A stretch of DNA of 26,024 bases from a phage. Shown here piece by piece: positions 5,709 to 6,739 of the stretch. The notes under the pieces are model-generated. The model was given only the letters and a program-made list of their open reading frames with translations, searched no databases and was not told the DNA's origin. The position numbers and the translations under genes are program-made. How positions within the stretch are numbered: the stretch's first letter is position 1; each line of letters opens with the position of its first letter. The stretch is taken from NCBI GenBank assembly GCA_012702815.1, contig GCA_012702815.1_3927.1; one strand, written 5' to 3'.

Positions 5709-6296
5709 ATGAAACTGTTAAATATCAAAATCACTGGTACTCGTCCTTTCCTGAGCCATAACGATACACTGTCAGACCCATTAAACCCTCTGACTAAATA
5801 TCACAAGTCTCTGTCCAGTAAACGTAAAAAGACTGACGAAGACTATGCGCTCTTAGCAGAAAGCCAACTGGTAACTTCTTGTTACTACGATGAGCAACTA
5901 GGTTTTGTTATGAACGGTGAGATGATTGAGGCTTGCATCAAGTCTGGTGCGAAACTCAACAAACTTGGTAAGGTAATTGACCGAGCCATTATGCTGACAG
6001 ATGTAGTCTTCCCAATGACTATCAAGAACTGTCCAGCAAACCCACAAGAACTTGCTAAGAATCCAGACTTCATCTATGCTAAGTCTGTTAAGATTGGTAC
6101 AGCACGAGTTATGAGCTACCGTCCAATCTTCCGTGACTGGTCTGTAGAGTTTGGATTGATGTTCGATGAAGAGCAAATCACCAAAGAGGAGCTTCTAATG
6201 GTTCTTGAAAATGCTGGTAACCTTTGTGGTGTAGGTGATTGGCGTCCACGCTTTGGTCGTTTTTCTGTAGAAGTTATTTCAGAAGGTAACGTTTAA
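5709..6296 (+). CDS. hypothetical protein (first gene of repeat-bracketed cassette)
   Basis: ORF 5694..6296 (GTG); ATG 5709 preferred, with GTGGAG 9 nt upstream. No recognisable motif. Confidence 0.6.
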
Positions 6297-6298
6297 TT

Positions 6299-6739
6299 AT
6301 GAATACAAAAGCATTAGCAGCAAAGTTTAGTTACGGTGACACTGTATCACACTCTGAGATGGACACCTTCTTAGGTATTGTGAAGCCAACTTATCAAGGT
6401 GACATTGTTAAGTACGAAGATGAAATGAAGGCTTATGCGCTTACACGTCTAAACCGACTTGAAAAGTTTATTGAAAAACTTCTTAAAGAAGAGAAGATTT
6501 ATCTGGTTGCTTCAATGGGTGTTGGTTATCGTGTGGTTGAACCTAAGCATCAAGCAACTATTGCAAAACGCAAAATGTCTGGTAAGATTGGTCGTGCTTT
6601 AAAGCAAGCCACTCAAGCGATTGAGAATGTGAACACTATGGCACTTAGTCATCAAGAACGTTCACGACTGATTGAACAGCAAAATCACTTAGCTGCTATG
6701 AAAGCTAATATTAACAAGCAACGCAGAAAACCTTTCTAA
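6299..6739 (+). CDS. hypothetical protein (second gene of repeat-bracketed cassette)
   Basis: Starts 2 nt after the upstream stop; followed by an intrinsic terminator at 6751-6773. Lys/Arg-rich C-terminus. Confidence 0.6.
   Translation: MNTKALAAKFSYGDTVSHSEMDTFLGIVKPTYQGDIVKYEDEMKAYALTRLNRLEKFIEKLLKEEKIYLVASMGVGYRVVEPKHQATIAKRKMSGKIGRALKQATQAIENVNTMALSHQERSRLIEQQNHLAAMKANINKQRRKPF

Follow-up and report, generated by a model that had tools for sequence, protein, structure and literature searches.

A two-gene cassette and its flanking repeat islands in a Felix O1-like phage: a probable VIPR system with guides directed against an Escherichia coli satellite

The subject of this analysis is a two-gene cassette in a 26,024 nt stretch of phage DNA (contig GCA_012702815.1_3927.1 of assembly GCA_012702815.1; the whole stretch is called the window). 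The window belongs to a Felix O1-like phage (Ounavirinae, Felixounavirus). The cassette comprises two open reading frames, ORF1 and ORF2 (5709-6739), and is bracketed by two repeat islands, A upstream and B downstream. We conclude, at a probability of roughly 0.93, that both genes together with both islands constitute one complete type II system of the Viral Interference Programmable Repeat (VIPR) kind, orthologous to that of Escherichia phage SUSP1 and with guides aimed at a satellite in Escherichia coli chromosomes. Orthology, RAMP fold, contact residues, guide-RNA anatomy, covariation in the RNA tails and spacing-specific satellite matches were computed here; we infer that the system behaves in this phage as it does in SUSP1 and that the phage benefits from silencing of the satellite. 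VIPR systems consist of Vipr, a small stand-alone RAMP protein, a Vap accessory protein and guide RNAs termed vrRNAs (bioRxiv 10.64898/2026.04.26.720920 and 10.64898/2026.04.26.720927, hereafter VIPR preprints). Because the system has been described in these 2026 preprints, the locus adds no new kind of system.

The assignment follows from the identity of both proteins to their SUSP1 counterparts: 191 of the 195 residues of ORF1 are identical in SUSP1 Vipr (98%), and 145 of the 146 residues of ORF2 in SUSP1 Vap1 (99%). A sequence search of the PDB with ORF1 returned one overwhelming match, chain D of entry 36pp, 'SUSP1 Vipr protein' (E=6e-128). The SUSP1 clade is defined by >90% identity to SUSP1 Vipr (VIPR preprints), a range into which ORF1 falls. 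ORF1 has the fold of an RNA-binding, Cas7-like RAMP, i.e., an RNA recognition motif (RRM) core together with G-loop and thumb. All residues reported to contact RNA or DNA are kept (H17, K33, R39, E71, M72, K82, K88, R138, C173, D177, W178, R179). Residue 175 (codon 6229-6231) is a valine here and in the deposited SUSP1 chain; the 'T175' given for the pyrimidine pocket in the preprint is therefore probably a typo in the text. From the ATG at 5709 ORF1 encodes 195 aa, and an alternative GTG at 5694 would extend it to 200 aa. The start at 5709 is favored because the PDB construct of the orthologue begins with MKLLNIK. Searches of Pfam, NCBIfam and PADLOC returned no match for ORF1 or ORF2, and both match PHROG families of unknown function (phrog_4652, E=1e-96; phrog_5926, E=7e-76). 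With these families of unknown function and no match in Pfam, the remark of an earlier, sequence-only reading of this DNA, that neither ORF carries a recognizable motif, was fair. The ORFs, promoter, terminator and bracketing repeat islands which that reading had delineated were all found in place.

The features of the locus are as follows; where a strand is given, it is the plus strand.

4170-5273, DNA ligase gene, left neighbor of the cassette
5281-5308, plus, sigma-70-type promoter of the VIPR operon (TTGACA-16-TATACT, 11/12 consensus), just past the ligase stop at 5273; identical in SUSP1 and phage dune
5342-5371, plus, type-1 header CACTTAAGAGTCTTTCTAAGAGGGTTTTTA, before vrRNA A1
5372-5466, plus, guide tract of vrRNA A1, 19 units
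5467-5504, plus, 3' tail of A1, H-type pseudoknot (GTAG/CTAC, AGTCTCA/TGAGACT)
5505-5538, plus, type-2 header TTTTTAAAAGGTCTTTAAGAGGGTCTTTTAATAA, before vrRNA A2
5539-5598, plus, guide tract of vrRNA A2, 12 units
5599-5636, plus, 3' tail of A2, pseudoknot (GTGG/CCAC, GGTAG/CTACC); identical in SUSP1 vrRNA1
5637-5708, plus, third header-like motif AAGAGTCTTCTGTTGAGGGTTCTTT (copy 5637-5670) and 5' untranslated region of vipr with the ribosome-binding site GGAG; invariant in SUSP1 and dune
5709-6296, plus, vipr, 195-aa Vipr, a minimal RAMP (Cas7-like) polymerizing on vrRNA
6299-6739, plus, vap1, 146-aa Vipr-accessory protein, possibly winged-helix-like, with a long helical hairpin in the model
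6751-6773, plus, intrinsic terminator 3' of vap1, stem 6751-6766 followed by a T-run
6770-6803, plus, type-2 header before vrRNA B1, overlapping the T-run of the terminator
6804-6868, plus, guide tract of vrRNA B1, 13 units
6869-6906, plus, 3' tail of B1, pseudoknot (GTAG/CTAC, TAATCGG/TCGATTA)
6907-6935, plus, type-1 header before vrRNA B2, the same as that before A1
6936-7005, plus, guide tract of vrRNA B2, 14 units
7006-7043, plus, 3' tail of B2, array-terminal pseudoknot (AAGG/CCTT, GGCAG/CTGCC)
7059-7087, second near-consensus sigma-70 promoter, 3' of island B
7132-7515, gene for a 127-aa protein, right neighbor of the cassette

Published vrRNAs consist of 9-16 YNNGG (GGY-NN) pentamers and a structured 3' tail; at least 4 units are the threshold for detection (VIPR preprints). 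Such pentamer tracts flank vipr on both sides, and the 19 units of A1 exceed the published range. The 58 units in the islands read (G/T/A)-G-Y-N-N: position 2 is G and position 3 a pyrimidine in all 58, position 1 is G in 42, and positions 4 and 5 vary. On both strands of the window long in-register GGY pentamer chains occur only at 5372-5476, 5539-5608, 6804-6878 and 6936-7015. Their lengths of about 14-21 units compare with an average of ~4 and no more than 10-11 when the islands were shuffled 2000 times. Rfam (15) covariance models gave no match at the gathering threshold in the whole window; vrRNAs have no Rfam family.

Each guide tract is followed by a 38-nt tail. An alignment of 12 distinct tails from the window, dune, SUSP1 and satellites displays an H-type pseudoknot in which columns 3-6 pair with 17-20 and columns 9-15 with 28-34, with compensatory changes in 9 of the 11 pairs. 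In this arrangement 88% of cells are paired compared with 27-42% in slid controls, and none of 500 shuffles reaches 88%. Ahead of each vrRNA and ahead of vipr stands a header motif of ~30 nt, AAGAG(T/G)CTTT...AGAGGGT(T/C)TTT, of two main types and in five copies (5342-5371, 5505-5538, 5637-5670, 6770-6803, 6907-6935). It could be a promoter, a processing signal or a recombination substrate. The header motif is absent from the vrRNAs which the satellites themselves carry.

Window and SUSP1 share the gene order ligase, arrays, vipr, vap1, arrays, 127-aa gene. When the intergenic regions of window, SUSP1 and dune are aligned, promoter, leader, headers and tails are invariant, and the pentamer tracts keep GG(T/C) with NN being hypervariable. 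The number of vrRNAs upstream and downstream of the genes is 2+2 in the window and in Escherichia phage vB_EcoM_ASO1B, 1+3 in SUSP1 and 2+3 in dune, with at least three upstream in JK55.

Expression of vrRNAs, ribonucleoprotein formation, the skip rule described below, transcriptional repression and its enhancement by vap1 were shown experimentally for SUSP1 only; there the vrRNAs co-purify with Vipr as ~100-nt species, and the complex binds double-stranded DNA, forms an R-loop triplex and represses transcription (VIPR preprints; structure PDB 36pp). Transferred to the window, the following sequence of events is proposed. The promoter at 5281 would drive vrRNA A1, vrRNA A2, vipr and vap1, with vrRNAs B1 and B2 coming after the terminator. 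Each vrRNA would be a run of (G)GY-NN pentamers with a 3' pseudoknot cap. One Vipr protomer would bind per pentamer with GGY flipped out, exposing the NN dinucleotides as a discontinuous guide. The filament would then pair with double-stranded DNA matching NN-x-NN-x..., one target base being skipped per unit, leading to an R-loop triplex and a block of transcription, and Vap1, predicted to bind DNA, would boost silencing. The guides would silence a ~10-kb satellite in E. coli chromosomes which presumably parasitizes Felix O1-like phages, and in that case VIPR would serve the phage as a weapon against this parasite.

The satellite shares a baseplate-hub gene with SUSP1, and most natural guides of the SUSP1 clade target an E. 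coli satellite phage (VIPR preprints). The baseplate-hub gene of the window (19879-20679, minus strand) has a match annotated as 'phage baseplate protein' in 474 of 5426 complete E. coli genomes. All matches lie at ~70-94% DNA identity, the best reaching up to ~93% over ~70% of the gene, which suggests that satellites and Felix O1-like phages have exchanged genes recently. At all 11 loci retrieved the match sits within a satellite of ~10 kb, found at several chromosomal insertion sites (near wrbA, tonB or yecD). It encodes a large serine recombinase, the baseplate hub, a tape-measure protein, a 235-aa protein (sometimes called 'transposase'), an HNH endonuclease and several small proteins, and carries in addition a long unannotated stretch. 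With island B as BLAST query, E. coli genomes yielded only seven weak matches, all of them to vrRNAs of the satellites themselves; the baseplate-hub gene shared with the phage was the only efficient way to find these elements. The shared gene itself is targeted by none of the four guides.

For the target scan the NN dinucleotides of each guide were joined with 0, 1, 2 or 3 wildcards and compared with 255 kb of satellite loci on both strands; in all, the search covered the 11 satellite loci, the window, the first 50 kb of SUSP1 and two pattern scans of IMG/VR. The best matches are listed by guide segment, satellite loci being cited by their numbers.

A1 units 1-9, 18/18 with skip 1, 235-aa gene of L012, at 7634; 17/18 in L005
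A1 units 10-18, 18/18 with skip 1, tape-measure gene, antisense, in L005, L007, L010, L011 and L015
A2, 20-21 of 22 with skip 1, 235-aa gene of the satellite
B1, 23/24 with skip 1, unannotated, ORF-free stretch of satellites L013 and L015
B2, 22-24 of 26 with skip 1, ~108-aa gene of the satellite

All five guide segments thus match the competing mobile element at 92-100% of NN positions, above a threshold of 80%, and they do so only when one base is skipped per unit. With skips of 0, 2 or 3 the best scores were 14-19, as compared with 18/18, 18/18, 21/22, 23/24 and 24/26 for skip 1. Guides with permuted unit order equaled the observed score in 0-1 of 200 trials. Neither the window nor the first 50 kb of SUSP1 contains a self-target at or above 80%, the best self-match being 69-78%. 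Differences between satellite alleles within target sites fall often, at several sites, on skipped bases. In the coding targets of A2 and of A1 units 10-18 the skip falls on the wobble base of the codon; for A1 units 1-9 it falls on codon position 1, for B2 on position 2. The unit adjoining the tail (usually AT) matches the target in no case and probably belongs to the tail.

The target of B1 was absent from the first nine satellite loci. An exact-pattern scan of IMG/VR with B1 units 1-10 gave no match. A blind exact-pattern scan of its 2.9 million viral contigs with units 4-12 returned two contigs, L013 and L014. L013 is a satellite which has its own vrRNA with a phage-type tail and matches B1 at 23/24. 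L014 (IMGVR_UViG_3300025137_007140, 4077-4114, 21/26) is an unrelated metagenomic contig of 5.6 kb and was set aside as a probable chance match, since about this many random matches are expected for an 18-base pattern. The B1 site (L015 9883-9917; L013 873-907) is non-coding, with no ORF of at least 40 aa, no annotation and no Rfam match; the stretch may be a regulatory region or an RNA of unknown kind. It lies ~280 nt from the promoter of the satellite's own vrRNA.

Single vrRNAs of this kind were seen in four satellites (L013 395-514, minus; L004 14996-15075; L007 13987-14056; L012 3189-3258, minus), and satellite-encoded vrRNAs are mentioned in the VIPR preprint. Their tail is nearly identical to the phage A2 type, and they have their own TTGACG-N16-TATAAT promoter and a strong terminator. 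Since vipr is not among the annotations of the vrRNA-bearing satellite loci, these satellites presumably borrow the Vipr of the helper phage.

Other explanations have to be weighed against these data. The sequence-only reading had regarded promoter, islands, genes and terminator as one unit whose expression might be controlled by the islands as a structured leader. The self-contained unit holds up; the leader does not, the islands being four guide-RNA genes and functional partners of ORF1. A structured 5' leader or attenuator regulating two unrelated cargo genes would agree with the position of island A between promoter and ORF1, with the stem and following T residues at the end of each unit and with the annotation of ASO1B, which places terminators within both islands. 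Yet the same units are also found 3' of the terminator, where a leader role is impossible, and in the satellites such units stand alone, each with its own promoter and terminator and no gene downstream. Moreover, the variable NN match satellite DNA under a single spacing rule, and the orthologous SUSP1 RNAs are recovered with Vipr as discrete ~100-nt species. A leader is thus very improbable. Next to negligible is the proposition that the G/T-rich arrays act as DNA, i.e., as replication-origin iterons or protein-binding sites, and that ORF1 and ORF2 are replication factors. In its favor are the strong strand asymmetry of the arrays and the position of the locus among genes for DNA polymerase, ligase, dihydrofolate reductase and thymidylate synthase. 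Against it, ORF1 has a RAMP fold and is almost the same as a protein whose structure was determined with RNA bound, and the compensatory base-pair changes in the tails are those expected of an RNA structure. Further, about half of the closely related phages are devoid of both genes, which therefore are not core replication factors. Arrays as RNA for ring proteins like TRAP or HutP, as a sponge of the Shine-Dalgarno/CsrA type or as DNA iterons were also considered, and were dropped after the PDB match and the NN-satellite matches. A class 1 CRISPR-Cas system was rejected as well: the repeat families of the window include no repeat-spacer array, and neither protein has a match in PADLOC, NCBIfam or Pfam.

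One may also accept a VIPR system and presume that its true targets are elsewhere, in other phages or in host genes, the satellite matches being incidental. The search was limited to the sequences named above, B1 also matches the unrelated contig L014, and according to the VIPR preprint 2 of 20 targets of the SUSP1 clade lie outside the satellite. Against this, five independent guide segments find their best matches, all of them near-perfect, in the same family of elements, and with skip 1 only. The blind scan for B1 led to a satellite with a phage-type vrRNA tail of its own, and the baseplate-hub gene of the satellite is up to ~93% DNA-identical to that of the phage. Incidental matches are, in our judgment, highly unlikely. 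A role in host takeover, which had been considered from the sequence, finds no backing, as the decoded guides match the satellite mobile element and not host genes.

Several points count against a complete, satellite-directed VIPR system. The function ascribed to this phage derives from the SUSP1 orthologue, and the present work is computational. The supporting literature consists of two 2026 bioRxiv preprints from one laboratory. Position 1 of the pentamer is T or A rather than G in 16 of 58 units. A good terminator lies upstream of vrRNAs B1 and B2, and neither has its own consensus promoter; for this reason their expression is assumed from the small-RNA sequencing of SUSP1. The targets were sampled from 11 satellite loci rather than from the pangenome, the best matches of A2, B1 and B2 are imperfect, and the skipped base is at the wobble position in only two of four coding targets.

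vrRNA A1 requires separate consideration. Its 19 units are in one register and contain two 9-unit segments which match different satellite genes on opposite strands. In L005 both sites are present, ~1.4 kb apart. Among phage records some matches cover only the 5' half of A1 and some only the 3' half; JK55 shares the tail-proximal part only. Tentatively, and at somewhat less than even odds, A1 may be a natural dual guide, in which the 9-unit halves would address one filament to two unrelated sites. If so, new guides could arise by in-register fusion, i.e., by recombination within the GGY scaffold which removes a tail and a header. For a system in which no adaptation machinery is known, this would be a simple way to diversify its guides.

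The region 5200-7200 is 99% identical to vB_EcoM_ASO1B. It has matches in 237 phage records, and in 112 of these at least 80% of the region is covered. Vipr at ≥90% identity is present in 118 phage records compared with 215 for the neighboring 127-aa gene at ≥90%. About half of the Felix O1-like phage records are hence without vipr, and the unit is accessory. vipr is commoner in Escherichia phages (77/120) than in Salmonella phages (17/76). ORF1 has 520 relatives at E≤0.001. Three distant vipr loci, from a metagenomic phage, a Rhodococcus genome and a skin-metagenome phage, were analyzed. As in the window, a vap1 homologue is directly 3' of vipr in each (vap1 profile against the downstream gene, E 3e-40, 6e-17 and 5e-12), with GGY-NN arrays adjacent. 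Thus vipr, vap1 and arrays travel together in three unrelated contexts, as supposed when the cassette was taken for an accessory, self-contained module. Two genes devoid of islands, which would have spoken against it, were not encountered among these relatives, since all three keep the vap1 homologue and the arrays.

One vipr-less phage is Escherichia phage vB_EcoM_ESCO49 (OM386663.1). No vipr or vap1 was detected by tblastn in its whole 84.8-kb genome. Between ligase and the 127-aa gene (80407-80688) it has the promoter, a type-1 header, one 12-unit vrRNA and the array-terminal tail. Because these remains match the product expected from recombination of the type-1 headers (5342-5371 and 6907-6935 in the window), the locus looks like a header-to-header deletion scar with an orphan guide. 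Such a scar would show that repeat-mediated rearrangement happens at the locus. It lends some support to the earlier idea of recombination between near-identical headers; the unit may plausibly be moved in this way. The lone guide of ESCO49 has no match of at least 80% in the 11 satellite loci.

For Vap1 a DNA-binding, winged-helix-like protein has been predicted (VIPR preprints). A word-indexed search with Vap1 returned near-identical proteins only, and an exhaustive search 234 remote relatives of similar length. Two motifs are common to them, YGD-I-H close to the N-terminus and LxSVRGxGYRIVxPxEQ in the central part of the protein. The AlphaFold2 model (predicted local distance difference test, pLDDT, 96) shows a small N-terminal helical part, a β-hairpin at 68-80 with the GYR motif and a long helical hairpin. 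Foldseek matches of this model are not significant, winged-helix DNA-binding domains being over-represented among the weak ones. As a model-based observation this is compatible with the published prediction.

Among known systems the VIPR locus of SUSP1 is the closest relative, being orthologous and having the same flanking genes, promoter, headers, two tail types and kind of targeted satellite. All four guide sequences differ, as does the arrangement of the vrRNAs (2+2 versus 1+3). The distant loci encode a metagenomic or actinobacterial Vipr homologue of ~40-50% identity with vap1 homologue and arrays as described. A type II VIPR in a Pseudomonas fulva prophage, compared through its description in the preprint only, has the same three-part unit. 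These loci differ from the window in hosts, tails and presumed targets. The tails of actinobacterial VIPR resemble the T-arm of tRNA and are unlike the pseudoknots of the window. In arrays of the actinobacterial type (L017 5112-5700; L018 3610-3960) each vrRNA tail has a T-arm-like hairpin, e.g., CGGCGGTTCGATTCCGCCG, and ARAGORN reports two 'tRNA-???' over array units of L017. From sequence, this suggests that actinobacterial vrRNAs might be processed by tRNA-maturation enzymes. The main text of the VIPR preprint never uses the word 'tRNA'. As judged from that text, the composite 19-unit A1, the orphan vrRNA in a vipr-less phage and the T-arm-like actinobacterial tails may go beyond the preprints.

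Class 1 CRISPR-Cas systems form Cas7/Csm3/Cmr4 filaments on crRNA; in contrast, the window contains neither a repeat-spacer array nor cas1/cas2 or any other cas gene. The VIPR guide also is discontinuous, unlike that of class 1, with two of five RNA bases used and one of three target bases skipped, and the outcome is repression, not cleavage. A biological parallel may exist in Vibrio phage ICP1. The guides of the CRISPR-Cas of this lytic phage reportedly target the chromosomal PLE satellite which parasitizes ICP1 (Seed et al., Nature 2013). The window resembles ICP1 in having a phage-borne, RNA-guided system predicted to be aimed at a parasitic chromosomal satellite. The type I-F CRISPR-Cas of ICP1 is complete, adapts and degrades its target, whereas the window has just one small RAMP, lacks any known machinery for adaptation and would act by silencing.

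In the phage records examined vipr and vap1 are still called 'hypothetical protein', and the two genes can now be named in more than 100 Felix O1-like genomes. The data further constitute an independent check of the skip rule: the guides of a different phage, decoded blind, land on the same satellite family and with skip 1 only. Felix O1-like phages are used for typing and therapy, and satellite silencing could affect their yield on particular E. coli strains. The composite 19-unit guide, the orphan vrRNA in a phage devoid of vipr and the presence or absence of vipr across about half of the genus are details which can be tested.

As to the remainder of the window, the cassette is surrounded by genes for DNA polymerase, ligase, dihydrofolate reductase, thymidylate synthase, small hypothetical proteins and a helix-turn-helix regulator. 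The terminator at 6751-6773 is the sole terminator-like site within 3000-9000. An ORF of 788 aa (11300-13666), which by position corresponds to the tail fibre gene of SUSP1, holds three copies of a 69-nt repeat (12286-13020, minus strand) at a spacing of ~330 nt and 72-83% identical; these look like internal domain repeats unrelated to VIPR.

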